A program made the position numbers and the translations under genes. A DNA stretch of 64,000 nt, from the NCBI GenBank assembly GCA_963707215.1, contig CAVPPB010000001.1:848780-912779 (forward strand), in the 5' to 3' direction. The first letter of the stretch is position 1. Each line of letters begins with the position of its first letter. The notes beneath the pieces were generated by a model. It was not told the DNA's origin and made no database searches. It worked only from the letters and a program-made list of their open reading frames with translations. Below are positions 9,062 to 45,721 of this stretch, piece by piece. Origin of the DNA: an uncultured Chloroflexia bacterium. GTDB lineage: Bacteria > Chloroflexota > Limnocylindria > Limnocylindrales > CSP1-4.

Positions 9062-10534
9062 ATGCGGATCGGGTCGGACACGCAGCGCCGCCTCCGCCAT
9101 CTCCGCCTGGCCGTTCCCGCCGGCCCGATCATCCTGCTCGTCCTCGTCCTGGGCGGCGGTCCGGCGGCGGCCCAGGATCCGGAGCCCACGCCGACCCTCA
9201 TCCCGGGCCCGCCGGCACCGACGCCGATCGCCCACCCGGGTGACTCCGGCGATGACCAGTGCTACGCCTGCCACGTGGAGCTCGACGACCGGCAGCAGGC
9301 GATCTCCGAGGCGTGGGAGGCGAGCATCCACGGCGCCGGCGGCATCGGCTGTGCCGACTGCCACGGCGGCGATCCGAGGTCGGACAAGATCACCGTTGCC
9401 ATGTCCGAGGAGGCCGGCTTCATCGGCATCCCGTCACGCGACGTGACGGTGGGGGTCTGCGGCAGCTGCCACAGCGACCCGGAGCGGATGGGCCAGTACG
9501 GCCTCCCCACGGACCAGTACTCGAAGTACTGGACCAGCGTCCACGGCCAGCGCCTCCTCGAGGCGGACGACACCCGGGTCGCCATCTGCATCGACTGCCA
9601 CGGGTCCCACGCGGTCAAGAAGGCTTCCGACCCGACGGCCGACGTCTACCCGCTCAACGTCCCCCAGATGTGCTCGCGGTGCCACTCGGATCCGTCGCTC
9701 ATGGAGCCGTACGGCATCCCGACGGACCAGTACGACGTCTACGAGCAGAGCATCCACGGCCAGGCGCTCATCGGGAACCAGGACGTCCGGGCGCCCTCGT
9801 GCACGTCGTGCCATGGCTCGCACTCCGCCCAGCCGCCGCGCAGCTCCGAGGTCGTCGACGTCTGCGGGAAGTGCCACACCGCGACCCAGGACCTCTACCT
9901 CGAGAGCCGGCATGCCGAGCTGGAGACGGTCGCGCCCAAGTGCTGGACCTGCCACGGGACGCACGACGTGGCCAAGTCGAGCGAGGCGCTATTCCTCCAC
10001 CCCGCGGGCGAGATGCCCGACTACGACTGCACGACCTGCCACGAGCCACCCGACATGACCCTGAAGCTGAGCATCGAGCAGTTCGCGAACGAGGCCGATC
10101 GCCGCTGCGACACCTGCCACCACCCCGAATCGGTGATCTACCCGCAGGTCGTCGCCATCCATGACGCCCTGGGCGGCGCCAGCGGAGCCCAGGCCTCGGC
10201 CGAGGAGAAGATCGCCAAGGCCCGCGGCCTGGGCATGCTCGTCGGCGACGCCGAGGTGACCCTCACCGAGGCGAAGACCGCCTATATCCAGGGCCAGGCC
10301 GCGGTCCACACGACCAAGCTGACGACCGTCACCGCCCACACCGACGAGGCGGTCGCCAAGGCGGCCCGGGCCGAGGAGCTGGCCCAGGCGAAGCTCGACG
10401 AGAGCGACTTCCGCCGGCTGGCGATGATCGTCGTCATCGCCCTCATCCTGGTCAACGTCGTCATCCTCTACGTCGTCCTGCGCCGGATCGAGCACAGCCC
10501 GAACGAGGGCCCACCGCCCGAGCCGTCGCCATAG
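9062..10534 (+). CDS. Decaheme cytochrome c with C-terminal membrane anchor
   Basis: Signal peptide; 10 CxxCH (CYACH, CADCH, CGSCH, CIDCH, CSRCH, CTSCH, CGKCH, CWTCH, CTTCH, CDTCH); helical region then TM helix. Confidence 0.92.
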   Translation: MRIGSDTQRRLRHLRLAVPAGPIILLVLVLGGGPAAAQDPEPTPTLIPGPPAPTPIAHPGDSGDDQCYACHVELDDRQQAISEAWEASIHGAGGIGCADCHGGDPRSDKITVAMSEEAGFIGIPSRDVTVGVCGSCHSDPERMGQYGLPTDQYSKYWTSVHGQRLLEADDTRVAICIDCHGSHAVKKASDPTADVYPLNVPQMCSRCHSDPSLMEPYGIPTDQYDVYEQSIHGQALIGNQDVRAPSCTSCHGSHSAQPPRSSEVVDVCGKCHTATQDLYLESRHAELETVAPKCWTCHGTHDVAKSSEALFLHPAGEMPDYDCTTCHEPPDMTLKLSIEQFANEADRRCDTCHHPESVIYPQVVAIHDALGGASGAQASAEEKIAKARGLGMLVGDAEVTLTEAKTAYIQGQAAVHTTKLTTVTAHTDEAVAKAARAEELAQAKLDESDFRRLAMIVVIALILVNVVILYVVLRRIEHSPNEGPPPEPSP

Positions 10535-10732
10535 GCCCGGGGTCGGCCGCGGAGCGACCCTCGGGTCGCCACCGGGTCGGCCGGTCCGGACCGCAACGCA
10601 GGCGTCCCCGAAGGCGAGCGACGGTCCCGTCGCGGACCGGCGGATCGGCCTGTGCGTCGGGGCCGCACGGTCCCGCGGGGGGCGGGCCGGACGGCACTGT
10701 CCGACATATTCGCGGATACGCATGGTCGGGGC

Positions 10733-12538
10733 ATGCACCTGCCCCGCTGGGCCCGCGACCTGGAGCTCCTGAAGTGGATCGGCGTCATCCTGCCGATCGT
10801 CTTCATCTGGGTCTTCGAGCTCGTCCGCTTCTTCGTCGTCGAGGAGAGCGTCGGCGGCACCGAGACCCACGTCGTCTCGGCGCTCGTCATGGCCGGTGCC
10901 GTGGTCCTGTTCGGCATCGGGATGGCCGCCCTCATCGACCGGACCGAGCGCGAGCTCGTCCGCCAGAACCGCGACTTGACGGCCACCCGCGCGGTCAGCG
11001 AGGCCGTCCGGGGGAACCGCCCGCTGCCGGAGGCCCTCGCCGAGGCCCTGGAGGGGCTGGCCCGCGAGACCGGCGCCGTCGCCGGCGTCATCCGGGTGCC
11101 CGGGGACGACGGTCGCGAGCTCGTGACGCGGCAGCCCCGGACCGTTCCGGCGGGCCTGGACTGGGCCGGGGCGCTCCTCGACGAGCCGGCGTCGACCCGT
11201 GCCGACGGCCCGCGCTACAGCGAGCGACGCGAGTTGGACACGACCCTTCTCGACCTCCCGCTCGCCTCCCGGGGGCAGCGCCTGGGATCGCTGCGCCTTG
11301 TCTTCCATCCCGCCCAACGACCCGATCTCTCCGAGGAGGCGCTGTCCGACATCGCCGACGAGCTCGCCACCGCCATCCGGCTCCACCACCTGGTCGAGGA
11401 CCTCCGGCGGCGCGAGCGGGAGCGGGCCGCCCTCTACGAGGTCGCCCTCCAACTCACCGAGCGGAGCGAGACGCGCCCGGCGCTCGACTCGATCGCGGAG
11501 CATGCTCGTGGACTGCTGGTGGCGGATCGCGCGGTCGTCTGCCTGGCCGAGCCCGACGCGGCGACCCGGTCCCGGCACGCGGCCGAGCGCCTGGCGCTCG
11601 CCGACGACGGTTCCGTCTGCCTGCTGGCCCAGGCTGGCGACGAGCCCGGCCACCGCAACCCCCTGTGCCCCGTTCAGATGGAGCGCGCTGGGAGCCAGTG
11701 GATGGCCCGACCGCTCCGCAGCGCCGACGGTCACCTCGGGGAGCTCTGCGTGGTGCGGGAGCAGGGTCCGGCCTTCTCCGACGCCGATCGGTCGCTGCTG
11801 GCCGCCCTGGCCGACATGGCCGCCATCGCCGTCACCACGGCCCGCCTCAAGGAGGCCGAGCAGCAGTGGACGATCGTCGCCGAGCGCGACCGTATCGCCC
11901 GCGAGCTGCACGACAGCCTGGCCCAGGTCCTGGGCCACATCCACCTGCGGCTGCGCGACATCGAGACCCGGCTCGACGGCGCCGCCCCGATCATCGGGGC
12001 CGAGCTGGCCGACCTGGCCGGCGTCGCCGACGAGGCCTACCGGGACGTCCGCGAGGCGATCCTGGGGTTGCGCGAGACGATCTCGTCCGAGGGCGGATTG
12101 GAGGGAGCGCTCCGCGAGTACATCGCCAAGTACGCCCGCCAGACGGGCATCAAGGCGAGCCTGGTGTGCGACGAGACCGCCCGGGCGGCGCTGCCGCCGC
12201 GGGCCGAGGTCCAGCTGCTCCGCGTCGTCCAGGAGGCCCTGACGAACGTCCGCAAGCACGCCGGCGCGACCCGGGTCGTCGTCCGGATGCGCTGCCCCGG
12301 CGGGATGCCGATCGTCGAGGTCGAGGACGACGGTGCCGGGTTCGACCCTTCGCGGCTGGAGAAGTCCTTCAGCGGCGGGTTCGGCCTGACCTCGATGCGC
12401 GAGCGCGTCGAGCAGGTCGGCGGTACCCTCGAGCTGCATACTGCCCCCGGTGAGGGGACCCGGATCGTGGTCCGCCTCCAGCCAGAGGACCCTCGTGTCG
12501 CACCAGCCACCACGTCTCCGGATCCTGCTGGTCGATGA
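10733..12538 (+). CDS. Membrane GAF-domain sensor histidine kinase (NarX-like, HisKA_3)
   Basis: Two N-terminal TMs; GAF-like regions; ERDRIARELHDSLAQ H-box; QEALTNVRKHA; DDGAGFD; GFGLTSMRER. Confidence 0.92.
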   Translation: MHLPRWARDLELLKWIGVILPIVFIWVFELVRFFVVEESVGGTETHVVSALVMAGAVVLFGIGMAALIDRTERELVRQNRDLTATRAVSEAVRGNRPLPEALAEALEGLARETGAVAGVIRVPGDDGRELVTRQPRTVPAGLDWAGALLDEPASTRADGPRYSERRELDTTLLDLPLASRGQRLGSLRLVFHPAQRPDLSEEALSDIADELATAIRLHHLVEDLRRRERERAALYEVALQLTERSETRPALDSIAEHARGLLVADRAVVCLAEPDAATRSRHAAERLALADDGSVCLLAQAGDEPGHRNPLCPVQMERAGSQWMARPLRSADGHLGELCVVREQGPAFSDADRSLLAALADMAAIAVTTARLKEAEQQWTIVAERDRIARELHDSLAQVLGHIHLRLRDIETRLDGAAPIIGAELADLAGVADEAYRDVREAILGLRETISSEGGLEGALREYIAKYARQTGIKASLVCDETARAALPPRAEVQLLRVVQEALTNVRKHAGATRVVVRMRCPGGMPIVEVEDDGAGFDPSRLEKSFSGGFGLTSMRERVEQVGGTLELHTAPGEGTRIVVRLQPEDPRVAPATTSPDPAGR

Positions 12539-13877: not shown

Positions 13878-14360
13878 ATGAGCCTTCCTTCCGGCCACCG
13901 CATGCCCCGCCGCCGCGCGCTCCTCGTCATCGGATCGAGCGTCGCCGCCATCGGCGCCACTCCCCTCGCCCTGGCCGGCTGCGAGCCGCCGGTGCCGGTG
14001 GACACGACGTTCGAGCTCGACCCGGCAAGCCTGCCCGTGGGCGAACCGACGCTCATCGGCTTCGAGTTCGAGAAGCCCGACGGGTCGATCGGCCAGGGCT
14101 CGGCCTGGTTCCTGCGCAGCGACGACGACGCGCTCGTTGCCTACGACCCGCGCTGCACCCACCAGGCTTGCGAGTACGCCTGGGAGCCGGCCCAGGCGCA
14201 GTTCACCTGCGTCTGCCACGAGGCCGCCTTCTCCCTGGACGGCGAGGTCTTGTTCGGCCCGCCGCCACGGCCGCTGGCTCGGTTCCCGATGGTCGTCAGC
14301 GGGACGTCGGTGACCCTCACGGTCCCCTCGAACCTGCAGGCGCCCAAGACCGAAGGCTGA
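13878..14360 (+). CDS. Second Rieske 2Fe-2S protein (Tat lipoprotein-like)
   Basis: RRRALL, LAGC lipobox, CTHQAC / CVCHEAAF, GPPPRPL. Confidence 0.88.
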   Translation: MSLPSGHRMPRRRALLVIGSSVAAIGATPLALAGCEPPVPVDTTFELDPASLPVGEPTLIGFEFEKPDGSIGQGSAWFLRSDDDALVAYDPRCTHQACEYAWEPAQAQFTCVCHEAAFSLDGEVLFGPPPRPLARFPMVVSGTSVTLTVPSNLQAPKTEG

Positions 14361-14590: not shown

Positions 14591-15586
14591 ATGTTCCGGG
14601 TCACGTCCCTGACCGCGATGTCGGACCGGCAGCTCGACCGCTGGATCAAGCGGATCGCGGCGCTGGCGCTGATCGCGCTCGTGGCGTTCGTGGCGTTCTA
14701 CGTCTTCGACCGCTACCGCGATCCCGGCCCGACGATGGTCGACCGCAACATCATCGCCCTCGAGGAAGTCGTCCGGGCCGACCCGGCCGACATCACCTCG
14801 CGGGGCCAGCTCGCCGACCTCTACACGGCCGCCGGCCGCTACGAGGATGCGATCGCCCAGTACGGGGCGATCCTCGAGACCGGCAAGGAGACCGAGCTGG
14901 CCCACTTCGGGCGGGCCAAGGCCTACCAGGCCAGCGGGCAGCTCGATGCCGCGGCCGCGGACTTCGAGGTGGTCGTGGGCATCGCCAAGGAAGGCGAGAT
15001 GGCCCACGTCGACCCGATCCTGAATGCCGCCTACTTCGGTCTCGGAGCGATCGCCCTCGAGCAGGGCCGCCCGGACGACGCGGTCACCCACCTCACGGCG
15101 GCGGTCAACATCAAGCGGGCTGACGCCGACTCGTGGAACCTCCTCGGGGCGGCCCTGGTCGACGTCGGCGAGCCCGCCAAGGCCATCGAGGCCCTCCAGA
15201 AGGCCGTCGCCTTCGTGCCGCTCGGGTGGGTCGAGCCATACGTGACGATGGCCGAGGCCTACACCGCGCTCGGCCAGCCGGCCCGGGCGGAGTGGGCCAA
15301 CGCGATGGCCGATCTCTCCGCCGGCAAGCCCGACGAGGCGAGGACCCGGCTCCTCGCCATCACCGAGGGCGAGACGGCCCTCGACGCCGCCATCGGCCTG
15401 GCGCTCATCGCCGAGACCGAGGGCGATGGGCCAGCGGCGGTGGAGTGGTACACGAAGGCGCTGGCGATCGATCCCGAGAACGCGGCCGCCCGGCTCGGTC
15501 TCGGCAGGGTCAGCGACCCAGCCGCCAGCGCGGCTCCACTGCCCGAGCTGCCCGAGCCCGGTGCCGTGGAAGGCGGCCAGGGCTGA
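14591..15586 (+). CDS. Membrane-anchored tetratricopeptide repeat protein
   Basis: N-terminal TM helix followed by Ala-rich TPR units (AYFGLGAIAL..., SWNLLGAAL..., ALAIDPENAAA). Confidence 0.85.
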   Translation: MFRVTSLTAMSDRQLDRWIKRIAALALIALVAFVAFYVFDRYRDPGPTMVDRNIIALEEVVRADPADITSRGQLADLYTAAGRYEDAIAQYGAILETGKETELAHFGRAKAYQASGQLDAAAADFEVVVGIAKEGEMAHVDPILNAAYFGLGAIALEQGRPDDAVTHLTAAVNIKRADADSWNLLGAALVDVGEPAKAIEALQKAVAFVPLGWVEPYVTMAEAYTALGQPARAEWANAMADLSAGKPDEARTRLLAITEGETALDAAIGLALIAETEGDGPAAVEWYTKALAIDPENAAARLGLGRVSDPAASAAPLPELPEPGAVEGGQG

Positions 15587-16653
15587 TGACGACCCCGCAG
15601 ATGACGGCCGACACCGTCCCGCCGGCGGCTGACACCGCCCCCGACGCCCCCACCCCGACCGAGCTCTCCCCGGAAGAGGAGCAGAAGCGGCGACGGCGCA
15701 AGGCCATCATCTTCTTCCTGCTCCTCGGCTTCCTGGGGATCCTCCTGCTCCTGCTGCTCTGGTACCTGCTGTTCCGGCAGCCGCTGCCGATCGTCCCGCC
15801 GATCCCGGAGGCTCAGCTGCCCGGCTATGCGACCAGCGTCTACGGGGCCTCCAGCCCCGCCGGTGTCGCGGTGACGCCGGCCGGCGACCGCATCTACGTC
15901 ACCGAGACCGGCGGCGACTACGGGATCAAGATCTTCGACGGCGGCGGCGTCCAGGTCGGGGCCATGGAGTTCCCGGCCGACACGGGTACCGGGCACGTCC
16001 CGGTGTACATCGCGATCGACCCGCTCTCCAGCGAGGTGTACGTCTCCGATCGGCCGACCGGCTCGATCCACATCTTCGACCGCGACGGGAAGTACCAGCG
16101 CCAGTTCAACCCCGGCGAGGAGATCCCCGGCTGGCAGCCGCTCGGCCTGGCGTTCGACCCGAACGGCAACCTCTATGTCACCGACCTGGGTGGCGCGACC
16201 CAGAAGGTCCTGGTCTTCGATCGCACCGGCACGGTCGTCCGGACCATCGGAGCCGACGCGGGCCTGGACTTCCCCAACGGGGTGGCCGTTGATGACGCAG
16301 GCCTGGTCTACGTCACCGACAGCAACAACGGCCGGCTGCTCATCTTCGGCCCCGATGGCTCGATCTCGGGCCAGATCGGCCGCGGCGCCGGCGCCGGCAA
16401 TCTCGGGCTTCCCCGCGGCCTGGCCATCGATGGCCAGGGTCGCGTCTTCGTCGTCGACACCAGCGGGAACGGCGTCTTGCTGTACCGGACGCTGGGCGAG
16501 GACGAGCGGCGACCCGAATACGTGGGGTTCTTCGGCGGTCACGGGCTCTCCGACGGCCAGTTCGCGTTCCCGATGGGCGCGGCCGTCGACGACCGGGGCC
16601 GCGTCTATGTGGCCGACACGGCCAACGGCCGTGTCCAAGTCTGGAGCTACTAG
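15586..16653 (+). CDS. Membrane-anchored NHL-repeat beta-propeller protein
   Basis: TGATG overlap with the TPR gene; TM helix; repeats PAGVAV..IYVTE, PLGLAFD..LYVTD, FPNGVAVD..VYVTDSNNGR, FPMGAAVD..VYVADTANGRVQV. Confidence 0.9.
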   Translation: MTTPQMTADTVPPAADTAPDAPTPTELSPEEEQKRRRRKAIIFFLLLGFLGILLLLLLWYLLFRQPLPIVPPIPEAQLPGYATSVYGASSPAGVAVTPAGDRIYVTETGGDYGIKIFDGGGVQVGAMEFPADTGTGHVPVYIAIDPLSSEVYVSDRPTGSIHIFDRDGKYQRQFNPGEEIPGWQPLGLAFDPNGNLYVTDLGGATQKVLVFDRTGTVVRTIGADAGLDFPNGVAVDDAGLVYVTDSNNGRLLIFGPDGSISGQIGRGAGAGNLGLPRGLAIDGQGRVFVVDTSGNGVLLYRTLGEDERRPEYVGFFGGHGLSDGQFAFPMGAAVDDRGRVYVADTANGRVQVWSY

Positions 16654-16733: not shown

Positions 16734-17101
16734 GAGAAAGGAGGTAAGGACAGTGAAACGCCTGGCGCTCCTGATGACAGGCGGCGCCATCTGGCTGTTC
16801 CTTGCCGCACTCCCTGCCCTCGCTGACGGCGGACCCCACGTCTCGACGATCAACAACGGGTCGCTGGGGATCAACGCCGACAGCTGTGCCGGGTGCCACC
16901 GTGCGCACACGGCACAGGGTCCATTCCTCATCAATGCCGCCGACGAGGAGGCCCTCTGCCTGACGTGCCACGGCGCGGCCGGCACGGGCTCGACCGTCGA
17001 CGTCATGACCGGCGTCCAGTACACCCTGGGCGGAGACGGCCTCCGCGGTGGTGCCATCCTTGGTGCTGCCCGCAACGGCGGCTTCGACCAGGCCCGGATC
17101 G
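16734..17101 (+). repeat. 368-bp direct repeat, copy 1 (RBS and 5' third of hexaheme gene 1)
   Basis: Matches 18059-18426 except two synonymous changes (CCT GCC vs CCC GCT), by eye. Confidence 0.93.
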
Positions 17102-18010
17102 ACAGCTCGAACGCGACCCGCTCGTCGTACCTGCGGAATGCGACCGCCGTGTCGCAGCACCCGAAGGTCAGCGTGCTGGGCGCGGGCGAGGACGTCACCT
17201 CCGCGCACCTCGAGCCTGCCCGACAACGGCCTGACGATGCCGGGCATCGCCTGGGGCAACGGTGACTTCACGGCTGCGGTGGATCCGGGGCCGGCCTTCG
17301 AACTGAGCTGCGCGTCCTGCCACAACCCGCATGGGAACGGGCAGTACCGCATCCTCAACCCGATCCCGAATGGGTCGGGCGCCACCACCGGCGTCGAAGT
17401 CGCCGACGCGGCCCTGCCGCCGGCTGGTGACACGCGCAACTACACGGTCATCCAGGAACTCGATCGCCGACGGCGGCTACGCTCTCTCGCGAGCGACGTC
17501 GTGGCCGGTGGCTTCGCCGCCACCGACGGCGACTACTTCCGTCGGAACGTGCCGTGGGCACCCGAGATCGTCGACCCGGTCAACTGCGACCCGACGATCT
17601 TCCCGCGGCCGGATTGCCCGGTCGATACGAACAATGATGCACCGAACGGTGACCCCGACTTCAACGTCGCGATCACCGCCTGGTGCAGCCAGTGCCATAC
17701 CCGGTACCTGGCCGATGGCAACACCCCGGTCGCAGGCAACCCCTACGAGACGGACTCCGGTGACGCCATCTTCACGTACCGCCACCCGACGCGCTCGAAC
17801 CGGACGTGCAACGTCTGCCACGTCTCGCACGGCTCGAACGCCACGATGGATGGCACGTTCAGCGTCAACGCGACCTACCCGGATGGGACGGTCTCAGCCA
17901 GCAGCCGGCTCCTGAAGGTCGACAACCGTGGCACCTGCCAGGCTTGTCACGATCCGACAGGGACCATCACGGCTGGCACGATCATCGGACCACCCGCGGG
18001 AGTGCCGTAG
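16753..18010 (+). CDS. Secreted hexaheme cytochrome c, OmcS-like, copy 1 (frameshift ~17215, compensating pair ~17455-17485)
   Basis: AGGAGG RBS, GTG start, Sec signal ending ALA; CAGCHRAH, CLTCH, CASCHNPHG..YRIL, WCSQCH, YRHP, CNVCHVSH, CQACH across ORFs 16657-17265 and 17048-18010. Confidence 0.85.
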
Positions 18011-18018
18011 AAGCTCAG

Positions 18019-18050
18019 TCACCGGAGGCCCCCTCGGGGGCTTCCGGTGA
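18019..18050 (+). terminator. Strong stem-loop between the two hexaheme genes (terminator or mRNA stabiliser)
   Basis: TCACCGGAGGCCCC-CTC-GGGGGCTTCCGGTGA inverted repeat 8 nt after the stop; no clear U-tract. Confidence 0.6.
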
Positions 18051-18058
18051 TCTCAGGC

Positions 18059-18426
18059 GAGAAAGGAGGTAAGGACAGTGAAACGCCTGGCGCTCCTGAT
18101 GACAGGCGGCGCCATCTGGCTGTTCCTTGCCGCACTCCCCGCTCTCGCTGACGGCGGACCCCACGTCTCGACGATCAACAACGGGTCGCTGGGGATCAAC
18201 GCCGACAGCTGTGCCGGGTGCCACCGTGCGCACACGGCACAGGGTCCATTCCTCATCAATGCCGCCGACGAGGAGGCCCTCTGCCTGACGTGCCACGGCG
18301 CGGCCGGCACGGGCTCGACCGTCGACGTCATGACCGGCGTCCAGTACACCCTGGGCGGAGACGGCCTCCGCGGTGGTGCCATCCTTGGTGCTGCCCGCAA
18401 CGGCGGCTTCGACCAGGCCCGGATCG
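18059..18426 (+). repeat. 368-bp direct repeat, copy 2 (RBS and 5' third of hexaheme gene 2)
   Basis: Near-identical to 16734-17101 (offset 1325). Confidence 0.93.
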
Positions 18427-19266
18427 GCTCGAGTGAGGTCTACCGGATCTCGACCGCGAGCGGCTCCCTTCGGACGAAGGTGCCGGTCCTGGCGACTCCG
18501 GCGGACGTCACGTCGTCCCACCTCGAGCTGCCCGACAACGGCCTGACCAATCCTGGGCAACGCCTGGGGCAACGGCCCGGACGGGTCGGGTGCCGGCCGA
18601 GCGTCGAGCTGAGCTGCGCGTCCTGCCACAACCCGCATGGGAACGGGCAGTACCGCATCCTCAACCCGATCCCGGACCCCGCCGCGACGGCCGCCGGGGC
18701 CTTCTACCCGGTCGCGGCGCCGGGCGCTCTGGTCACCGACGCCGCGCTGCCACCGGCACGGCGACACCCGCAACTACACGGTCATCCAGACCGTCGCGAG
18801 CGCGCCGACCTTGCTGGCAAGCGACGTGCCGAGCGTTCCCGGCTACACGCCGACGGCGGGAGACTACTTCCACCGTGGCGTGCCGTGGAACACGCGGACG
18901 AACAACGACGCTCCGAACGGGCTGACCAGCTTCAACAGCGAGATCACTGCGTGGTGCAGCGCCTGCCACACGCGGTACTACTCGGAGGACGACGGGACCA
19001 ACCCGACCCCGAACACCATCTTCAAGTACCAGCACAACACCCAGAGCAACCGGGCCTGCACGACCTGCCACGTGTCCCACGGCTCGAACGCCCAGATGGA
19101 CGGCACCTACTCGTCGACGTACACCTACCCGGATGGGCGGGTGTCGGCGAACAGCCGCCTCCTGAAGATCGACAACCGCGGCACCTGCCAGGCCTGCCAT
19201 GACCCGACAGGGACCTTCGGCCCCAGCAACAGCGTGGGCCCGGTCCCGGTGCCGCTCGTCCCGTAA
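18078..19266 (+). CDS. Secreted hexaheme cytochrome c, OmcS-like, copy 2 (indels ~18557, ~18590, ~18757)
   Basis: Same N-terminus as copy 1; CAGCH, CLTCH, CASCH, CSACH, CTTCH, CQACH across ORFs 18078-19202 and 18637-19266. Confidence 0.85.
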
Positions 19267-19385: not shown

Positions 19386-22184
19386 ATGAAGCGCCCACCG
19401 GCGCACCGAACCGGCCCAGCTGCCGCCGCGATCCTCCTGGTCGCGTCGCTGCTGCTGTCCGTCACCCCGGTCGTGCCCCGGGTCGGCGCCATCGACCCGA
19501 CCCCGGTGCCGAGCGCGAGCGAGCCTGCTTCGCCGACGCCAGCACCCGCCCCGACCCCCACCGATCCGCCGTCCCCCGGCCCCTCCCCGACACCGTCGCC
19601 CACGCCGTCGCCCGACCCGAGCTCGAGCCCGGTTCCGACGCCGCCGTCGTCGCCGTCACCAGCCCCCACGTCGCCTCCGTCGGCGAGCCCCTCGCCGACG
19701 CCGAGCCCGGTTCCGAGCGACCCCCCGTCGCCGCAGCCGTCGCCGACGCCCAAGCCATCGCCGAGCCCGCTTCCACTCGATGCGGTCGTGCTCCAGTCGG
19801 CGGATGCCCCTGAGGTCGGGGCTCGCCGCGTGGACCCCGGCGCGCTCGTCGCCATCACCCTCACGATCCTCGCCACGGGTCCGGTCACCGACGCCGAGCT
19901 CGTCGAGCAGGTGCCCATCGGCTGGCTCGTCGTCGATGCGGCCGGCGGCACCTACGATCTGGCCGAGCGGTCGGTCCGCTGGTCCGTGTCGAGCCTGGTG
20001 GCCGGCAGTACCTGGGAGCGAAGGGTCGTCGTTCGAGCGCCATCGCTCGGAGCCGGCGACCCGGTGCTCGATGCTCGCTTCGAGGCGAAGCTCGTCGGGC
20101 GAAGTGATCGGGTCCTCGCCGCGCCGCTCGACCTGCTCGTCGCGCCGGAGCTCGTCATCGCCGAGACCACGTTCGCCACCATCGACGACCTGAGCCAGGT
20201 CCCGACCTACCTCACCCCCGGCGAGGCCCTTGACGCGGTCGCAGCCTTCGACCGGATCCGGCTCCGATTCCAGGTCCGCAACCCTGATTCCATCCCCGTC
20301 ACGATCGTCCCCGACCTCGAGTACCGGGCCGTAGGTGACGCTCGCTTCGTCGCCTTGCCGGCCGGCGACCCGGCGCGTGGGGTCCCCTTCTACCTGGCGA
20401 CCGAGTGGCGACCGGCTGGCAAGGGGAAGACCGGCACGGTCGTAGGTCCGCCCACGGAACCCATCCCGCCTGGCGACCTCAAGGCCGACGTCAAGGACGA
20501 CCCGTCCCAGCGACCTTCCCAGGGGCGCCGGTTCATGGGCACGGACCCGGAGGCCGAGGTCATCGTGCCGGCGAACAGCTACACGGAGATCGAGTTCACC
20601 CTTCGGGCTTCGATCGACGCCCCGTACGGGCGCTCGTTCGAGCTTCGGCTGGTCGATGACGGCCGACCGGTGGCGGCGGCCGTCATCGCCTCGCTCGCGA
20701 CCGGCCCGAGGCCGCCGCTCGTGCTGACGCCCGGTCAGCGCAACGGCCTGGATGTCGGGGCGCCGGTCGACGCCGGGGCCGCGCCGGCGTCGCTGTCGCC
20801 GACCGCTGCTCGGCAGAGCGGCGTCGACCACGCCCTGCTGCCGCCCGACCGCATCGTCGACGCACGGAGTGCGGTCGCGACCGGGCTGCCGCGCTACCGA
20901 CTCGCGATCGCCCAGCTCACCGAGCCCGATGCCGCGGGACCTCTCGCAGCCCCCTTCGATTCGCCCCACGTCCCGGATACGTCCCTGGTGACCGACACCT
21001 GCGCCCGATGCCACAGCGCACACACCGGACAGGGACCCATGCTGCTGCCCGACCCGAACCCCCAGAGCTCCCTCTGCCTGTCATGCCACGACGGGAGCGG
21101 CTCGGACATCGACGTGGCCGGGCGGTACGCCGACCAGGACGTGCCCGCGAACGACGAGGCCACTCGGTCCACCTACCGCCACGACGCGCTGGCGCCGTCG
21201 GTCCACACGCTGGCCGGCGACGACGAGTTCGGCGGGCTCCTCGAGCGCCACAGCGAGTGCGCCGACTGCCACAACCCGCACAACTCGGTGGCGACCGATG
21301 CGACGCAGACGACGACCGGCTGGACGGTGTCCGGCCGCCAGGCCGCCCTCTCCGGGGTCGCCGTGACCAACGGCCCGGCGGGGACCGCCCCCACATACGC
21401 CTTCCTGGACGGGAGCGCGAATGCCCAGCCGACCCGCGAATACGAGATCTGCCTCAAGTGCCACTCCGGCTACACCGTCCTGCCCTCGAACGTCGGCCAG
21501 CCGCCGTCCCGGTACGCCCTGGACAAAGGCCTCGAGCTCAACCCCGGCAACGCCTCCTACCACCCGGTCGAGGCCGCGGGCACCAACCAGACGGCAGCCA
21601 TGGCCAACGGGCTGGCCGGCACCTCGCCCTACAAGCTCTGGGACTTCACGACGGCAGGGACGGTCCGCTGCGTCAACTGCCACGCCGATCCGGCGGTCCT
21701 GGACCCGGACCAGCCGCCGACAGCCGGCAGCGCCCTGGCCCCGCACGTGAGCCAGAACCGGGGGCTCCTGCTCCAGCCATACCGCGACAGATCGCTCAAG
21801 CCCGTCGGCGAGCCGTATTCGGCCGCGGACTTCGCTCTCTGCTACGTCTGTCACTCGGAGGCGCCGTACCTGAACATCAGGACGGGGGCCACGGCGTTCG
21901 ACTTCCACGCCCTGCACGTTTCGGACCTGCCGGGGGGCAGCGGCGGGCTGGACATCGACACGCCCGGCGCCGGGCAGGGCTACGCGGTCTGCGCCGAGTG
22001 CCACTTCCGCCTCCATTCGACCGCCCAGGCCGTCAACGATGGCGACCGGGACAACAGCCGACTGGTGAACTTCGCCCCCAATGTCGTGCCGAACAACGGG
22101 GTGCTTGAGTGGCAGAAGGTCGGCGCGGGCGGGACCTGCACGCTGACCTGCCACGGCGAGCCTCACCGGAACGCCGACTACTAG
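19386..22184 (+). CDS. Large secreted octaheme cytochrome c with Pro/Ser/Thr linker and beta-rich domains
   Basis: Signal peptide; ~90-aa PSPTP-rich tract; beta-sandwich-like region; CARCH, CLSCH, CADCH, CLKCH, CVNCH, CYVCH, CAECH plus CTLTCH (Cx3CH). Confidence 0.85.
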
Positions 22185-22694: not shown

Positions 22695-23865
22695 ATGACC
22701 GCTCCGACCGCGCGATCCGACTCCCACCAGCAGGTCCTGCTGGCTCGTCTGGGTCTCGACGACCGGGCCACGCCCGAGGACGTCGAGGTCACCCATGACG
22801 AGCTCGTCGGCATTCCTGACGACCGCACCGCGGTCGCTCCGCGCCTGGGCCCGTGTCCAGGCCGAGGCGGCCGACGAGGCCTTCGCTCTTCTCACGGACC
22901 CGGACGCACCCGGGATCCCCGGAGCCCTCTCGGGATCCAAGGGACGTGCGACGGTCCAGCCCGACGGGCCGGCGACACCTCCGGCCCGTCGGGCACCCTC
23001 GCCCGCACCGGAAGCGGCCGCCGTGGCCGCCGCGGCTGTCGCGGCCGAGGGCGCCATCGACGACGGGGCGGAGGAGCTCGAGGCGGACGAGGACGTCAGC
23101 TTCGAGGAACTCCTCGCCGAGGTCACCCCGGGCACCCACCGGGAGAGCCTGGCCCCGAAGGGCTCGAAGCCCAAGGCGAAGGGGAAGGGAGCCGCCGAGG
23201 CGGCCCCGGTCGCCGCGGCCACCGTCGCGACGGGCCAGCCGGCCGGTGGCAGCTCCCGGGTCAAGCGCTTCGGCATCATCGGCGCCGTCGCCGTCGCGGC
23301 GGTCGTCGTGGTCGCCGGGGTCTACCAGCTCGGCGCGGCGTCGAACTCGCCCGGCAGCATCGCCTCTGCGAGCCAGCAGCCGCAGGCGAGCGCCGGCGTC
23401 GACCAGGCCCGGGTCTCCGACCTGATGGCCAAGGTCCAGGCCGACCCGACCGATAGCGCCTCGATGATGCAGCTGGGTGACGTCTTCTACGTCGCCGGCG
23501 ACTTCGGTGCGGCCGCCACCTGGTTCGGCAAGGCGCTGGCGGTCGACCCGACCGACAGCGACGCCCAGCTCGCCCTGGGGGCCGCCCTCTTCAACGCCGG
23601 CGATATGGAGGGTGCCGAGGCGGCCTGGATCGCCGTCGTCGAGCGCGAGCCCGACAACGTCGAGGCCCATTACGACCTCGGCTTCCTCTATCTGAACCAG
23701 GAGCCGCCGGACATGGACGGCGTCCAGCGCGAGTGGGGCAAGGTCGTCGAGCTGGCCCCCGACTCGGATGTCGCCCAGACGGTCAAGGCCCACCTCGACG
23801 CCTTCGAGAGCCCGGCGGCCAGCACGGCCCCGAGTGCCTCGCCTGAAGGATCCGTCGAGCCATGA
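22695..23865 (+). CDS. Membrane TPR protein (CcmH/CycH-like TPRs) with J-domain-like N-terminus; frameshift ~22812
   Basis: Joins ORF 22695 (LGLDDRATPEDV) to ORF 22795; TM helix then TPRs (QLGDVFY, ALGAALFNAGD, AHYDLGFLYL). Confidence 0.72.
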
Positions 23866-24590
23866 TCGAAGTCGGGATCCTGGTCGCGTTCCTCGGCGGG
23901 ATCCTCTCGTTCGCTTCGCCCTGCTGCCTGCCGCTCGTGCCCGCCTACGTGGGCTACATGGTCGGCACGGCCACGGAAGGACCCGGCGCCCGGCGCCGCA
24001 CGCTCCTCCACGGGCTAGCCTTCGTCCTCGGCTTCTCGGTCGTATTCGTGGCCTTCTGGGCCTCCATCGGGCTCGTCGGCTACGTGCTGGCCGATCAGGC
24101 CTGGATCCTGCGGCGGCTCGGCGGGGTCGTGCTCGTCGTCCTCGGCCTCCAGGTGGCCGGGGTCATCAACCTGCGGGCGCTCTGGCGCGACACTCGGCCG
24201 ATGCCGGCGATGGCCGCCGGCCCCGGCCTGGGGACGGCCACGACGTCGGCTCCCGGCTACGGGCGGTCGCTCGCCTTCGGCACCTTCTTCGCCGCCGGCT
24301 GGAGCCCGTGCATCGGGCCCATCCTCGGCGGGATCCTCGGCCTCGCGACGGTGACCGCCAGCGTCGCCCAGGGGACCGTCCTCCTGGTCGCCTACGCGGC
24401 CGGACTGGCGATCCCCTTCCTTGCCGTGGCCCTCGGTGCCGACTGGGTCGCCCACCGGCTCACCTGGGTCGGGCGTCACCACCGAGCCGTTTCCATCATC
24501 ACCGGCGCCTCGCTCGTCGCGATCGGCGTCCTGATGCTCACCGACACCCTGACCCGGCTGGCGGCCCTGACGTCGCCGCTGGGCATCTGA
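23862..24590 (+). CDS. ccdA: Cytochrome c biogenesis protein CcdA
   Basis: SFASPCCLPLVPAY and GWSPCIGPILG motifs; multiple TMs. Confidence 0.95.
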   Translation: MIEVGILVAFLGGILSFASPCCLPLVPAYVGYMVGTATEGPGARRRTLLHGLAFVLGFSVVFVAFWASIGLVGYVLADQAWILRRLGGVVLVVLGLQVAGVINLRALWRDTRPMPAMAAGPGLGTATTSAPGYGRSLAFGTFFAAGWSPCIGPILGGILGLATVTASVAQGTVLLVAYAAGLAIPFLAVALGADWVAHRLTWVGRHHRAVSIITGASLVAIGVLMLTDTLTRLAALTSPLGI

Positions 24591-24604
24591 CCGGAGGACA
24601 TGCG

Positions 24605-26137
24605 ATGACCCAGCAGGCACGGACCGGCCGCCTCCCGGGCGACGCGTCCCCGGCCCCGGCCGAGGTCGAGCGCGATTCCGGGTTCGGGATCGACGACCTC
24701 CTGGAGCGCGCCTGGCACCTCCTCACCTCGATGAAGTTCGGGGTGTTCATCATCCTGATCCTGGCCGGCCTCGGGCTCATCGGCTCGATGATCATCCAGG
24801 CCCCACCGGGGATCGCCGCCGACCCGGCCGCCAAGGCCGACTGGCTGGCCGAGATCGCCCCCAAGATCCTGCCCGGCATCGAGTTCCTGCAGTCGATCCC
24901 GATCGTGGGAGCGCTGGTCCCGACGGTCCGCTACGGCGACGTCTCGGGCACCTTCGACGCGCTCCAGATCTTCAGCATCTTCGACTCGATCTGGTTCCGG
25001 GCCCTGGGGGCGCTCCTGACGGCGAGCCTCATCGCCTGCTCGTCGCACCGGCTGCCGGGTCTCTGGAAGTCGGCCACCAAGCCGCACGTCGCCATCGGCG
25101 AGGCGTTCTTCACCCACGCCCCCCAGCATGAGTTCATCTCGGTCAAGGGGACGCCGGAGGAGATCCAGCAGCGGGTCACCTCGGTGATGAAGAAGCACCA
25201 CTACCGGGTCGTCACCGAGGACGACGGGGTGACCCACCTCTACGCCGACAAGTTCCGCTGGGGGCCCTTCGGGACGGTCATCGGCCACCTGAGCCTGGTC
25301 GTCATCCTGGCCGGCGCGATCGTCGGCTCGATGTTCGGTTTCCGGGACAACGGTTTCGTGGTGGCGGAGGGCTCGACGGTGCCGGTCGCCACGGATGACG
25401 GCATCTCGGTCGAGCTGATCCAGTTCCAGGACGCCTACTACACCGACACCGGCGCCCCGGCCGACTACGCCAGCGACGTCGTCGTCTACCAGGACGGTGC
25501 CGAGGTCGCCCGCCATACCGTCCGCGTCAACGAGCCGCTCCGCTACGGCGGCCTGTCGTTCTACCAGTCGTTCTACGGCCCGGCCGCGGCGATGAGCGTC
25601 GCCGACGCCGAGGGCACCGAGGTCTTCGCCGACGGCGTCCCGCTCGCCTGGAGCGATGGCGACTCCGGACGCCGCGTCGGCACCTTCGTCATCCCCGGCG
25701 CGAACCTGACCGTCTGGGTCATCGGGACCGCCGGGACCGGTGACACGGTCGTCGCCCCGGGCCAGATGCGCGTCGAGGTCTACAACGGCAGCGACGGCAG
25801 CCCGGTGGCCGGCGAGACGATCGACCAGGGTGACACGGTCGAGGTGGCCGGCTATGGCTTCACCTTCCAGCGGGAGATGCAGTTCACCGGCCTGTCGGTC
25901 GCCCGGGACCCGGGCACGCCGCTCATCTGGCTCGGTTCCGGTCTCATGATCGCTGGCTTCGTCCTGGTCCTGATGTTCCCCCACCGGCGGGTCTGGGGTC
26001 GCCTGGTCACCCGGCCGGGTGGCCGCGGGACCCTCTCCCTGGCCGGAGCAGGCCGACGCGACGTCGGCTCGAACACCGAGTTCACCGACCTGGTCACCGA
26101 GATCCGGGCGGCATCCACCACGCCGACGGGAGGCTGA
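24605..26137 (+). CDS. resB: Cytochrome c biogenesis protein ResB/CcsB (System II)
   Basis: LTSMKFG, GSMIIQ, FDSIWF, GHLSLVVILAG, VRVNEPLRYGG..FYQS, TGLSVARDPG..LIWLG, HRRVW. Confidence 0.92.
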   Translation: MTQQARTGRLPGDASPAPAEVERDSGFGIDDLLERAWHLLTSMKFGVFIILILAGLGLIGSMIIQAPPGIAADPAAKADWLAEIAPKILPGIEFLQSIPIVGALVPTVRYGDVSGTFDALQIFSIFDSIWFRALGALLTASLIACSSHRLPGLWKSATKPHVAIGEAFFTHAPQHEFISVKGTPEEIQQRVTSVMKKHHYRVVTEDDGVTHLYADKFRWGPFGTVIGHLSLVVILAGAIVGSMFGFRDNGFVVAEGSTVPVATDDGISVELIQFQDAYYTDTGAPADYASDVVVYQDGAEVARHTVRVNEPLRYGGLSFYQSFYGPAAAMSVADAEGTEVFADGVPLAWSDGDSGRRVGTFVIPGANLTVWVIGTAGTGDTVVAPGQMRVEVYNGSDGSPVAGETIDQGDTVEVAGYGFTFQREMQFTGLSVARDPGTPLIWLGSGLMIAGFVLVLMFPHRRVWGRLVTRPGGRGTLSLAGAGRRDVGSNTEFTDLVTEIRAASTTPTGG

Positions 26138-39887: not shown

Positions 39888-40198
39888 CTCTAGCCACGAC
39901 GCGCCGATGCCCTGTGGCGGGCGGCCGCAGTGAGCGTCGACGATCGCCTACCTGCTCCGCCGGCCGCTTCCGCCCGGCACGCAGTCGGCGGTCAACCGCT
40001 ACCTGGACTGCGGCATCTTTGCCCGCGGCTTCGCCCAGGGGTCAGCCGCTTCATTCGATGTATGCTTCTCGCGAGCGATACCACGAGGTCATGGAGCGCT
40101 CGCAGACGCCGAGGGTACGTGACCGGCCCTGATGAAACGGTGAACACCATGTGCGGGGCTGGTCGCGATGCCGACCGGGCTTCTGCAAAGGACCGACC

Positions 40199-42703
<2,505 letters not shown>

Positions 42704-42776
42704 AGCCCCACGCGGCCGCCGCGCGGCGCGTTGTCGCGAAACGTTGCTCGACACGGCATGAGCACGGGAGGTGGGT

Positions 42777-43864
42777 GTGAATCGACGTATTGGAGTTCTG
42801 ACCGGCGGCGGCGATTGCCCAGGACTCAACGCGGTCATTCGCGCGGTCGCCAAGGCGGCCAACCGGCACGGCTGGGAAACGGTGGGCATTCTCGGAGGCT
42901 ACGAGGGGCTGCTCGAGCCCCTGCGCTCCCGCACGCTCGACTACCGCGAGCTGGGCGGCCTGCTCACCCGCGGCGGCACGATCCTCGGCACCAGCAACCG
43001 CGGCCGCTTCGCCGCCAAGGTGGGGCACGGCGACACGCAACGGATCCCGACCGAGGTGCTCGACGACGCGAAGCGCGGATGCGAGGCGCTCGGACTGTCG
43101 GCCTTGATCGCGATTGGCGGCGACGGGTCACTGAGCATCGCGCAGCAGCTGTTCGAGCACGGCCTGCCCGATCGTCGGCGTGCCCAAGACCATCGACAAC
43201 GACCTGGCGGCGACCGTGATGACCTTCGGCTTCGACTCGGCCGTGGCCTGCGCGACCGACGCGCTGGACCGGCTGCACAGCACGGCCGAGAGCCACGAGC
43301 GCGTCATGGTCCTGGAGGTGATGGGGCGATACGCGGGGTGGATCGCCATCTACGCGGGCATCGCCGGCGGCGCCGACGTGATTCTCATCCCCGAGATTCC
43401 GTTTCGCTACGATGCCGGATCTGCGGCGAAGATCGCCGAGCGCGAACAGGCGGGCCGTCACTTCAGCATTGTGGTGGTGGCCGAGGGCGCCCGGCCGGAG
43501 GGCGGCGCGTTCGTGACCACCGGCGACCAGCCCGCGGACCGCGAGGCGCGCCTGGGTGGCATCGGCGCGCAGGTGGCGGCCGAGCTCGAGCGTCGCACGG
43601 GCAAGGAGACGCGCGCCGTGGTGCTCGGCCATCTGCAGCGCGGCGGCGGTCCCACCAACTTCGACCGCGCGCTCTGCTCGCTCTTCGGGACCACGGCGGT
43701 GGAGCTGGCGGCCGAGGGCCGGTTCGGCCGCATGGTGACCTACACCGGCGACGCAGATCAGCAGCGTGCCGCTGGCCGACGCGATCGGGCGGCTGCGGAC
43801 GGTTCCGCTCGACGGCGGGTTCGCGCGCGGTGCCCGAGCGCTCGGCATCTGCCTCGGCGAGTGA
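42777..43864 (+). CDS. pfkA: 6-phosphofructokinase (frameshifts ~43170, ~43755)
   Basis: LTGGGDCPGLNAVIR, GGTILGTS, IGGDGS, PKTIDND, EVMGRYAGW, LGHLQRGG. Confidence 0.93.
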
Positions 43865-44031
43865 CGCGCGGAATGGAGCCGATCGCATGGGTCTGCCGGC
43901 GAACAAGTGGACTGCCGCAGTCAGCTGCCGCCGCGTGCCCGTGGCCGACGCATGCCTGAGCGACCCTCGGCGGATACCTAATTGAACCGTGAGACGAGCG
44001 CGTCTCATACACTGGAGCGCAGGAGCACACG

Positions 44032-45056: not shown

Positions 45057-45346
45057 CGGCCGGGACGCGCGGCCTCGCCCCGGTCGGAGACTTGCTTTCG
45101 CATCAGCCCCGCAGCGGGCAGCAGGACGATGAGCGCCGTGAGTGTGGTGACAATGACCATCACCGACACATTGGGGTCGGTAAAGTTCTGCGTGCTCACG
45201 ATCAACGCAGCCGGGAAACTCAGCCTGGCGTTTCGGAGCGGCGCCACGATTTGTGGCAGCCTCAGCCCCAGGCCGATCTCGGACATGCTCGAAACGAGGA
45301 AGACCAAAACGGATACCTGCGCAACGGCCGCGAGGAATTCAGTCAT
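45053..45346 (-). pseudogene. Internally deleted bile acid:sodium symporter-family gene
   Basis: N-terminus (VFLVSSM..GLGL...IVAPLRN) fused in frame to C-terminal AALIV..QNF.DP.V.VMV; only 97 aa. Confidence 0.6.
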
Positions 45347-45358
45347 AGAGACGCCGGG

Positions 45359-45721
45359 TCAACGCGCCTTGGCGATCACCAGCAAGAAGGCCGCCGCGTC
45401 GACGCCGCGCACGGAATGTCGAACTCCGGGGGCGAAGACGACGGAACAACCGGCCTCCACTTCGCGCTCGGCGTCGCCGCTGATGAACACGACCTTGCCC
45501 TCGATCACGGTGAGGGTTACCGAACCCGGCGCCTCGTGCTCGTCGAGCGACACCCCCTCGTTGATGACCGTCAGCAAGACGTTCATTTCGGGGGCCTTGG
45601 CGAGCGTCTGCGCGCTGCGCCCGTTGTTGGCGTATTCGGGGCTGGCCCGCAGGGCGGCGGCAACCGCTTTAAGGTCGAAGGTCTCCACCGCGGATCCACT
45701 GATATCGATCGGCATGCTCAT
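45359..45721 (-). CDS. Cupin domain protein
   Basis: GRSAQTLAK, LDEHEAPGSVTLTVIEG, PGVRHSV. Confidence 0.82.
   Translation of the reverse strand: MSMPIDISGSAVETFDLKAVAAALRASPEYANNGRSAQTLAKAPEMNVLLTVINEGVSLDEHEAPGSVTLTVIEGKVVFISGDAEREVEAGCSVVFAPGVRHSVRGVDAAAFLLVIAKAR

Follow-up and report, generated by a model that had tools for sequence, protein, structure and literature searches.

Tandem hexaheme cytochrome genes of a Limnocylindria bacterium encode remote relatives of the nanowire cytochrome OmcS, with a candidate inter-subunit histidine

The window analyzed here, a 64,000-nucleotide stretch from a Limnocylindria (Chloroflexota) genome that is 84.8% complete in 5 contigs, carries two tandem paralogous genes on its forward strand. 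Gene A (16753..18010) runs from a GTG start at 16753 to a TAG stop at 18008-18010, and gene B (18078..19266) from a GTG start at 18078 to a TAA stop at 19264-19266. Both products carry an identical N-terminal signal peptide, which ends at ALA/DGGPH, and their translations show neither a cysteine lipobox nor a C-terminal anchor. Read in the frames dictated by homologues, each gene contains six CxxCH motifs, distributed 2+1+3 over its pieces. Outside these motifs there are seven histidines per copy. Six of them, the conserved distal histidines, are common to A and B (GGPH, HRAH, TS(A/S)H, HNPH, Y(R/Q)H, and HVSH), and one is private (VSQH in A, DYFH in B). A preliminary description of this DNA had listed the Sec signal, the six CxxCH motifs without lipobox or anchor, and the six shared non-motif histidines, and the translations confirmed all of these for both genes. 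Compared to P0002, an intact homologue of 419 aa, A is 88.7% identical over 407 aligned residues and B is 74.1% identical over 374. Judging from sequence, the best explanation is that A and B encode Sec-exported, bis-His hexaheme c-type cytochromes.

The 5' ends of the two genes are nearly the same. The block 16734..17105 of the forward strand, which comprises the ribosome binding site, the signal peptide, the heme-1 and heme-2 motifs, H29, and H52 of gene A, is matched by 18059-18430 in gene B. Over about 370 nt, starting 19 nt before the start codon, there are only 2 mismatches (alignment columns 3-372), and the direct repeat D1 covers 300 nt of these blocks at 99%. As a result, residues 1-116 of the two proteins are identical. 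This near-identity points to a recent gene conversion.

The two genes lie in a row that is conserved in the Limnocylindria, in the order Rieske, TPR, NHL propeller, one or two hexahemes, and octaheme, all encoded here on the forward strand. The row is opened by a Rieske [2Fe-2S] protein (13878..14360; PF00355, E 2.8e-9) with an RRR motif and a lipobox-like signal-peptide end, LALAGC, whose gene is found upstream in 44 of the 58 related loci with enough flank. It is followed by a membrane-anchored TPR protein (14591..15586; TPR_2, E 2.3e-23, and other TPR families), made of one N-terminal hydrophobic helix and then repeats (60 of 62 loci with enough flank), and by a membrane-anchored NHL-repeat beta-propeller (15544..16653; PF01436, E 7.6e-34, 5 stretches), directly upstream of the hexaheme in 65 of 67 such loci. 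Downstream of B lies the gene of a 932-aa multiheme cytochrome (19386..22184), a relative of which is present downstream in all 65 related loci with enough flank. Its 7 CxxCH motifs and 1 CxxxCH motif are confined to the last 400 residues. Ahead of them come a hydrophobic N-terminus (anchor or signal), a linker rich in Pro, Thr, and Ser (75% P+T+S, residues 35-135), and a heme-free middle. Further on, we found a TPR protein resembling the TPR domain of the cytochrome c biogenesis protein CcmH/CycH (22795..23865; PF13414, E 3.5e-13; PF23914 at E 4e-8, below that family's cut-off) and a ResB/CcsB-like System II cytochrome c maturation protein (23768..26137; PF05140, E 1.5e-69, residues 322-765). 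No porin-like or channel gene was found among the conserved neighbors scanned. Two adjacent intact hexaheme copies occur in 23 of 76 loci, or in 21 after setting aside L068 and L069, where the first copy is a seven-heme protein.

The family to which A and B belong is large. With a threshold of E<=1e-3, one search returned 1,363 of 2,908 candidate proteins and another 1,720 representatives, of which 401 also satisfied E<=1e-30; intact homologues measure 380-460 aa. In 95 full-length relatives, the six CxxCH motifs and H29, H52, H152, H193, H343, and H358 are each at least 90% conserved. Look-alike clusters were also seen in Actinomycetota and Bacillota in an Atlas search. A search of NCBIfam gave only sub-threshold decaheme matches, the cut-off of TIGR03508 (MtrA/DmsE decaheme) not being reached. 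The literature searched (on Limnocylindria and Chloroflexota cytochromes, OmcS, and nanowires) gave no description of this hexaheme family in Limnocylindria. Shen et al. 2025 reportedly claim a widespread machinery, going by the title. Limnocylindria are a widespread lineage of soil, sediment, and freshwater and are usually taken to be single-membrane bacteria. The best explanation of these data is that A and B are members of a large Limnocylindria family that is remotely related to the Geobacter nanowire cytochrome OmcS.

This kinship came to light with a profile of 95 rows, whose top match in the PDB was OmcS (6ef8_A/6nef; E 1.2e-4, 24.5 bits). With single sequences or a 56-row profile, OmcS appeared in the PDB at E 2.6 or was unlisted, and only generic paired-CxxCH matches were obtained. 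The 95-row profile matched 7tfs_A, which we take to be OmcE, only at E 0.0075 and over one paired-CxxCH stretch. In the HMMER alignment, CAGCHRAH pairs with OmcS 9-16, CLTCH pairs with CLNCH (the motif ending within OmcS 8-56), and the stretch from heme 3 to heme 4 pairs with OmcS 134-249. The motif resemblance to OmcS, noted in the preliminary description, thus holds for hemes 1-4. The histidine of "RAH" (H52) is aligned to OmcS residue 16 ("CHRah" versus "CHTMH" 12-16), in a domain 1 that scores only 6.4 bits; we take residue 16 to be the inter-subunit histidine ligand of OmcS.

The structural comparison pointed in the same direction. The AF2 monomer model reached a pLDDT of 84.4 and a pTM of 0.85, with a low-confidence N-terminal arm (pLDDT 46-55, residues 31-60). 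An earlier model built from 56 rows was poor (pLDDT 58.3) and was superseded; its Foldseek result (OmcS first, E 0.87) therefore carries little weight. Foldseek ranked OmcS first with both models, at E values that never reached 0.001 and TM scores of only 0.22-0.24. The structural alignment to OmcS comprises 206 residues, about half of the chain, at 4.2 Å and 24% identity, and spans the chains from end to end. The predicted fold did not turn out to be unlike that of OmcS: OmcS is first in Foldseek and the best solved match by profile.

Several features of OmcS (GSU2504 of G. sulfurreducens; 6EF8/6NEF) appear to be shared by A and B: a predicted secreted protein of about 400 residues, six CxxCH motifs in the same order, putative all-His ligation, and a histidine three residues after the first CxxCH, which is residue 16 in OmcS. 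Of the 12 axial histidines of OmcS, 11 are provided by the own subunit and 1, on heme 5, by the neighbor (PMC6584659). The genetic layout is also similar: in both cases there is a tandem paralogue, and an NHL-repeat gene lies next door. Indeed, omcS and omcT lie in one operon, and GSU2505, which adjoins omcS, is an NHL-repeat protein (PMC9070056). There are also differences. The kinship is visible only with the 95-row profile, and the spacing of hemes 4, 5, and 6 is much shorter in A and B, where the motifs start at 310, 351, and 394, than in OmcS, where they end near 243, 334, and 404. Furthermore, the A/B model has extra long beta-hairpins (88-147), in a region without OmcS counterpart in the HMMER alignment. 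The host belongs to the Chloroflexota, and its filaments are putative. Outside Geobacter, an OmcS homologue with six CxxCH motifs and 28% identity has been described in the genome of an actinobacterium (Coriobacteriales) from a bioanode (PMC7399161). It comes from a Gram-positive-type lineage and from another phylum than A and B, and it is likened to them by its published description.

We then considered whether such subunits could link to each other. The two-copy model gave ipSAE values of 0.61, 0.60, and 0.56 (median, 0.60), compared to 0.00 for the best of 3 controls. In the calibration of this score, 20 of 30 proteins whose structures are one-chain pairs reach the ipSAE mark, compared to 1 of 23 whose structures are single chains; our run departs from that calibration by its own alignment, the hemes riding along, and the inclusion of only 4 of the 12 hemes. 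The runs agree in at least 98% of the contacts, and the partner pLDDT is at least 88. The contacts are asymmetric: residues 118-137 and 317-411 of copy 1 face residues 31-59 and 191-196 of copy 2. The lowest-error pairs join H52 and T53 of copy 2 to 317, 338-343, and 373-375 of copy 1, and A51 of copy 2 touches C354, in the heme-5 motif, and C394 of copy 1. H52 is thereby put at the heme-5 motif of the neighbor, and heme 5 is also the one that receives the foreign ligand in OmcS. Additionally, conservation across the family is higher at the interface (0.65 and 0.75) than at the remaining positions (0.55). The preliminary description had assigned the "RAH" histidine to a heme of the neighboring subunit, and in the two-copy model H52 does sit in a pocket of the other copy, lined by residues 317, 339-343, and 373-375.

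This asymmetric interface, with H52 by the heme-5 motif of the neighbor, argues for polymerization at the level of modeling. The two-copy score may, on the other hand, reflect the predictor's memory of the solved OmcS filament. The earlier proposal that A and B are polymerizing subunits is partly supported, at the level of a head-to-tail interface in models that may remember OmcS. Taking the evidence together, we give roughly even chances to A and B being functional OmcS-related hexahemes that may link via H52 into a filament or a short chain.

It is quite possible, if short of an even chance, that A and B are OmcS-family hexahemes that do not polymerize and act as soluble or wall-associated carriers or as terminal reductases. 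They would then connect the anchored octaheme with an external partner, as presumed for OmcT, OmcJ, and GSU2501 in Geobacter. According to the account in PMC12977616, Geobacter has four paralogues of the OmcS type that sequence methods are unable to separate, and a wire is known for OmcS alone. Membership in the family therefore does not predict a wire. The other three hexahemes, OmcT (GSU2503), OmcJ (GSU0701), and OscC (GSU2501), are tandem or nearby duplicates like A and B, and none is described as known to polymerize (PMC12977616, PMC13194489). Moreover, the six distal histidines would be needed equally by a monomeric bis-His hexaheme, the match to the OmcS fold covers only 206 residues, and the N-terminal arm, with its pLDDT of 46-55, is simply low-confidence in the monomer model. 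What speaks against such carriers, and for subunits that link, is the reproducible asymmetric interface centered on the conserved H52 (0.60 versus 0.00 in the controls), together with the alignment of H52 with OmcS residue 16 and the higher conservation of the interface.

The likeness to OmcS could also have been invented independently, out of a shared need to wrap a linear stack of six hemes, which we consider decidedly unlikely. In its favor, OmcE and the archaeal extracellular cytochrome nanowires share a heme arrangement with unrelated folds (PMC13712944, PMC9473688). In OmcE and in the "insulated" archaeal nanowires PcECN and AvECN, a histidine of the neighboring subunit likewise ligates a heme in the polymer (PMC9473688), although, unlike A and B, these proteins are tetrahemes of unrelated fold. 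The low sequence identity, and the large part of the HMM score that falls on heme motifs, would also suit convergence. However, the match is collinear over hemes 1-4 and includes residues that are not ligands ("LL" before heme 2, HNPHG/HDPHG, and the W before heme 4), the structural alignment runs through both chains from end to end at 24% identity, and the NHL propeller neighbor and tandem-paralogue layout are as in Geobacter.

The reading frames of the two genes are broken in the assembly, as the preliminary description had indicated. In gene A, an extra base stands at 17215/17216 and about 10 codons are out of frame at 17459-17488; gene B shows a +1 near 18558, a -1 near 18596, and a +1 at 18757. 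Together, this amounts to about seven indels in 2.5 kb. Three housekeeping genes of the window, for phosphofructokinase (PFK), class II aldolase, and glycogen phosphorylase, are likewise split: the match to PF00343 is divided between ORFs 41041-41688 and 41147-42700, that to PF00365 between 42771-43982 and 43180-43956, and that to PF01116 between 44032-44727 and 44735-45787. An Rfam scan of the window returned no RNA family, so rRNA does not account for the frame switching at 40-44 kb. We also compared public sequencing runs, each of which contains at most 0.20 of the words sampled. In a contig about 99% identical to the window (run X1, record 5; one other letter in 151), the extra base at 18757 is missing, and three further X1 pieces match the window with zero differing letters. 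The bases at 17211, 17458, 17478, and 17485 are absent from contigs of relatives in X2 and X4. The near-identical contig covers only one of the about seven indel sites; no such contig reaches 18558 or 18596, the interval 18527-18613 being without cover in X1. Because housekeeping genes are split alike and the near-identical contig lacks the base at 18757, the breaks in A and B are most likely assembly errors. They look like such errors and not like decay. That both genes are decaying is highly improbable. In favor of decay, the indels are dense, whereas about 4.8 kb of neighboring sequence, the TPR, NHL, and 932-aa genes, has open frames. Against it, in addition to the split genes and matching contigs above, substitutions have spared all 12 heme motifs and all 12 conserved histidines, and A remains 88.7% identical to an intact homologue. 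A and B are thus, going by their sequence, most likely two functional tandem genes broken only by consensus errors of the long-read type.

With functional genes that link via H52, we would propose the following mechanism. Cleavage at ALA/DGG would release a mature protein of about 395 residues, which would bind six hemes. Five of them would receive both axial histidines from their own chain, as suggested by the alignment at OmcS residue 16 and by the two-copy model, and H52 ("CHRAH") would reach into the next subunit and complete the coordination of heme 5. Repetition of this contact between N-terminal arm and C-terminal pocket could build a filament or, at the least, stack the hemes in a short chain, placed outside the cytoplasmic membrane. 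Given the conserved synteny, the membrane-anchored TPR and NHL-propeller proteins may serve as folding or assembly helpers, and the linker-bearing octaheme is the likely cell-proximal partner that would feed or drain the chain. The adjacent System II genes would load the hemes. In Geobacter, the osc machinery that accompanies omcS is reported to comprise the secretion components OscEFG, the folding factor OscH, and OscD (PMC13194489, a secondary source).

A bolder reading, which we regard as unlikely, is that Limnocylindria build OmcS-type filaments without outer-membrane machinery and that the gene-converted tandem paralogues copolymerize. The anchored TPR protein and NHL propeller alone would be needed, and the filament would be rooted on the linker-borne octaheme. 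Repeated conversion would keep the docking arms identical, giving mixed filaments with differing surfaces. The sole hints for such hetero-filaments are the gene-converted, identical N-terminal arm and an excess of A/B identity at the modeled docking site (72% versus 65% elsewhere) that is too weak to use.

To our knowledge, only a few organisms have yielded solved structures of cytochrome nanowires, most of them Desulfuromonadia and two of them archaea. Polymerizing multiheme cytochromes are described as hard to predict from sequence (PMC12977616). The hexaheme family described here adds a very widespread nanowire candidate from another phylum; its operon is simple and conserved, and H52 provides a specific residue to test. 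If its members do not polymerize, they would make a useful negative control for the prediction of nanowires from OmcS likeness. If they do, they would show the assembly of OmcS-type wires without an outer membrane and would suggest that abundant uncultured Chloroflexota of soils and sediments transfer electrons over long distances.

The two genes, A (16753-18010) and B (18078-19266), lie head-to-tail on the forward strand (16753-19266) of a window with a G+C content of about 70%, the final 64 kb of its 912,779-nt contig. Each has a GTG start codon preceded by the same AGGAGG site, and the encoded signal peptide is also the same, ending in ALA immediately before DGGPH. In frames guided by homologues, each protein harbors six CxxCH motifs and seven other histidines, of which six (GGPH, HRAH, TSxH, HNPH, YxH, and HVSH) are common to both and one is private to each. 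The motifs and shared histidines listed in the preliminary description were thus correct in full.

That description had also pointed to the same motif order in OmcS, the Geobacter nanowire cytochrome. Searching the PDB by phmmer with fragments of A and B returned OmcS at an E value of 2.6 or not at all, OmcS was not among the PDB matches of a 56-row profile, and the matches in Pfam and NCBIfam were confined to the generic paired-CXXCH domain and to decaheme families scoring below threshold. When 50%-cluster representatives were added to bring the alignment to 95 rows, the best PDB match was OmcS (6ef8_A/6nef; E value of 1.2e-4), and the alignment was collinear over hemes 1 to 4, bearing out the proposed order for these hemes. 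The segment from 'leCtsCHnpHG' to 'itawCaqCHt' aligned to OmcS 134-249 ('LHCSSCHDPHG' to 'MSEWCANCHT'), and 'sCAgCHRah...lll...lCltCH' aligned to OmcS 8-56 ('ECEGCHTMH...MLL...CLNCH'), a stretch of only 6.4 bits; the histidine of the RAH motif thus pairs with OmcS residue 16. An AlphaFold2 model built with the earlier alignment was poor (pLDDT of 58.3), and the one built with the 95-row alignment reached a pLDDT of 84.4 and a pTM of 0.85, the N-terminal arm (residues 31-60) being its only low-confidence part. Since 6EF8 was released on 2019-04-10, presumably after the training cut-off of the weights used, the likeness in fold should not be memorized. The hexaheme family is truly, though distantly, related to OmcS, with which it shares the heme-binding core, roughly half of its chain.

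Of the 12 axial histidines in an OmcS subunit, 11 are supplied by that subunit and the remaining one, a ligand of heme 5, by its neighbor (PMC6584659); ligation by a neighboring subunit is also described in general terms in PMC9473688 and PMC12307469. We predicted a complex of two copies of the mature intact homologue P0002 (residues 25-419, own family alignment A3) with four hemes. The scores were 0.61, 0.60, and 0.56 (median, 0.60), none of three controls scored above 0.00, and a pass may be the predictor's memory of a solved relative. Of proteins solved as one-chain pairs, 20 of 30 attained the predictor's mark, as did 1 of 23 single-chain structures; these counts are only roughly valid here, as our own alignment and a small molecule were included. 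Contacts agreed between runs by at least 98%, with a partner pLDDT of at least 88. The two copies contribute different surfaces to the modeled, asymmetric interface, copy 1 its C-terminal side (118-123, 137, 317, 330-343, 354, 366-375, and 388-411) and copy 2 its N-terminal arm (31-59 and 191-196). Interface positions are somewhat better conserved in the family (0.65 and 0.75) than the rest (0.55). The best-defined pairs join H52, the RAH histidine, and T53 of copy 2 to residues 317, 338-343, and 373-375 of copy 1, and A51 of copy 2 contacts C354, in the heme-5 motif, and C394. The histidine is therefore modeled beside the heme-5 motif of the neighbor, and this geometry is the one expected if H52 completes the neighbor's heme 5. 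A head-to-tail contact of this kind could repeat indefinitely.

Alternatively, the hexahemes could be monomers. [quoted passage not shown] The proposal that A and B are polymerizing subunits is thus partly supported, by the modeling of a specific, OmcS-like contact, but neither membership in the OmcS family nor the histidine count predicts a wire. We consider head-to-tail polymerization of any length an evenly balanced prospect on the basis of the model.

A and B are identical over their first 116 residues and 65 to 75% identical thereafter, and the identical DNA begins 19 nt ahead of the start codon, which points to gene conversion of the 5' part. Two intact adjacent copies were found in 23 of 76 related loci, 21 of which were compared after setting aside L068 and L069, where the first copy is a seven-heme protein. 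Over the N-terminal 100 residues, the nearest relative was the in-genome paralogue for 8 of 42 copies (L005, L014, L030, and L038), and over the C-terminal 190 residues it was so for none of the 42. Because of these N-terminal pairs, which are 100% identical in L014, conversion of the arm-encoding part would appear to recur across genomes. This fits co-polymerization of the two copies, but recombination in the most conserved segment would explain the identical arms equally well; the identity of A and B at the modeled docking site (72%, versus 65% elsewhere) favors neither reading. In L014-L016, L018, L029, L030, L033, L044, L047-L049, L053, and L059, the first copy is 70 to 200 residues longer (mature, 467-612 aa), with an insertion between the parts matching P0002 1-210 and 213-419 and all six CxxCH retained.

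Neither A nor B is readable in a single frame. The breaks were located by comparing the DNA of A and B and by using the intact homologues P0002 and P0003 (419 aa; 86% and 83% identical in the homologue search). A has one extra base at 17215/17216 and about ten out-of-frame codons at 17459-17488 ('ELDRRRRLRS' in place of 'ESIADGGTLLAS'); B has +1 near 18558 and -1 near 18596 ('QRLGQRPGRVGCRPS' in place of '..AWGNG...') and +1 at 18757. Three lines of evidence indicate that these are most likely assembly errors. First, at 40151-45787, glycogen phosphorylase (41041-41688 and 41147-42700), phosphofructokinase (42771-43982 and 43180-43956), and class II fructose-bisphosphate aldolase (44032-44727 and 44735-45787) are each divided among overlapping or abutting open reading frames (ORFs) in different frames, and no rRNA or other RNA family accounting for this was found in the region. 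Indel errors are therefore frequent in this assembly (3.26 Mb, 5 contigs) and probably also lower its completeness estimate of 84.8%. Second, substitutions remove none of the 12 heme motifs and none of the 12 conserved histidines, at identities to P0002 of 88.7% (A) and 74.1% (B). Third, public contigs disagree with the assembly. In sequencing run X1, three pieces (17796-17952, 18042-18254, and 18345-18495) do not differ from the window, and a fourth (18666-18817) has one other letter and lacks the extra base at 18757, the only indel site spanned by a near-identical contig, 18558 and 18596 being spanned by none; more distant contigs of runs X2 and X4 (90 to 97% alike) lack the bases at 17211, 17458, 17478, and 17485. 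The neighboring TPR, NHL, and 932-aa cytochrome genes are unbroken, so errors are unevenly spread; this would suit true frameshifts in A and B, but given the split housekeeping genes, the preserved residues, and the public contigs, we regard pseudogenes as very improbable.

The C-terminal 264 residues of A matched 1,363 of 2,908 candidates (E value of ≤1e-3), mostly of 380 to 460 aa and labeled at the source 'predicted CXXCH cytochrome family protein'; a profile built from 56 full-length sequences of the family matched 1,720 representatives at ≤1e-3 and 401 at ≤1e-30. A relative is encoded in 198 of 380 pattern-matching stretches from species-representative genomes, and the 76 loci kept are titled almost all Chloroflexota, Chloroflexia, or Limnocylindrales MAGs, the neighborhood most like the window's being that of a Limnocylindrales MAG (L077). 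The genome that carries the window thus probably belongs to the same class. Among loci with enough flank, an NHL propeller lies directly upstream of the hexaheme (65/67), a TPR protein ahead of it (60/62), a Rieske protein farther upstream (44/58), and a relative of the 932-aa cytochrome downstream (65/65). The row opens with the Rieske protein (13878-14360), whose RRR motif and signal peptide ending in LALAGC suggest an outward-facing, Tat-exported lipoprotein. The 932-aa protein has a hydrophobic N terminus, a linker of 75% Pro/Thr/Ser, encoded by degenerate direct repeats (D2; 19555-19774, 4 x 52 nt, 65-75%), and seven CxxCH and one CxxxCH near the C terminus. In the window, the row goes on with a CcmH-like TPR protein and ResB; the ResB-like ORF (23768-26137, 789 aa) has its domain only from residue 322, and a further frame error or a wrongly placed start may account for its long N-terminal extension, which runs into the TPR ORF before it. 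Ahead of the row, a 490-aa cytochrome with ten CxxCH (c7/c3-type Pfam), followed by a GAF-HisKA_3 histidine kinase (9062-12538), may serve the same system close to the membrane or in a regulatory role. At a second locus of this genome (G000, contig C2, 165454-168228, reverse strand), open frames of 675 and 481 aa give two paired-CXXCH matches. The TPR-NHL-hexaheme row also occurs in L071 (5921-8606), titled a Candidatus Deferrimicrobiaceae MAG, 56 to 64% identical to the Chloroflexota versions; the bin holding this contig belongs to another phylum, which could reflect a binning error or gene transfer. No porin-like component was seen among the conserved neighbors scanned; Chloroflexota such as Ardenticatena are described as presumably monoderm (PMC5808234).

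The closest known system is that of Geobacter, where OmcS has OmcT as a tandem paralogue and the NHL-repeat gene GSU2505 adjoins; a larger osc operon in Geobacter and an actinobacterial OmcS homologue with six CxxCH motifs are reported in PMC13194489 and PMC7399161, respectively. In the literature searched, we found no published description of the hexaheme family in Limnocylindria. Overall, A and B are real genes, broken only in the assembly, that encode remote relatives of OmcS in a conserved electron transfer operon, and a possible OmcS-like head-to-tail assembly of their products has specific support from modeling.
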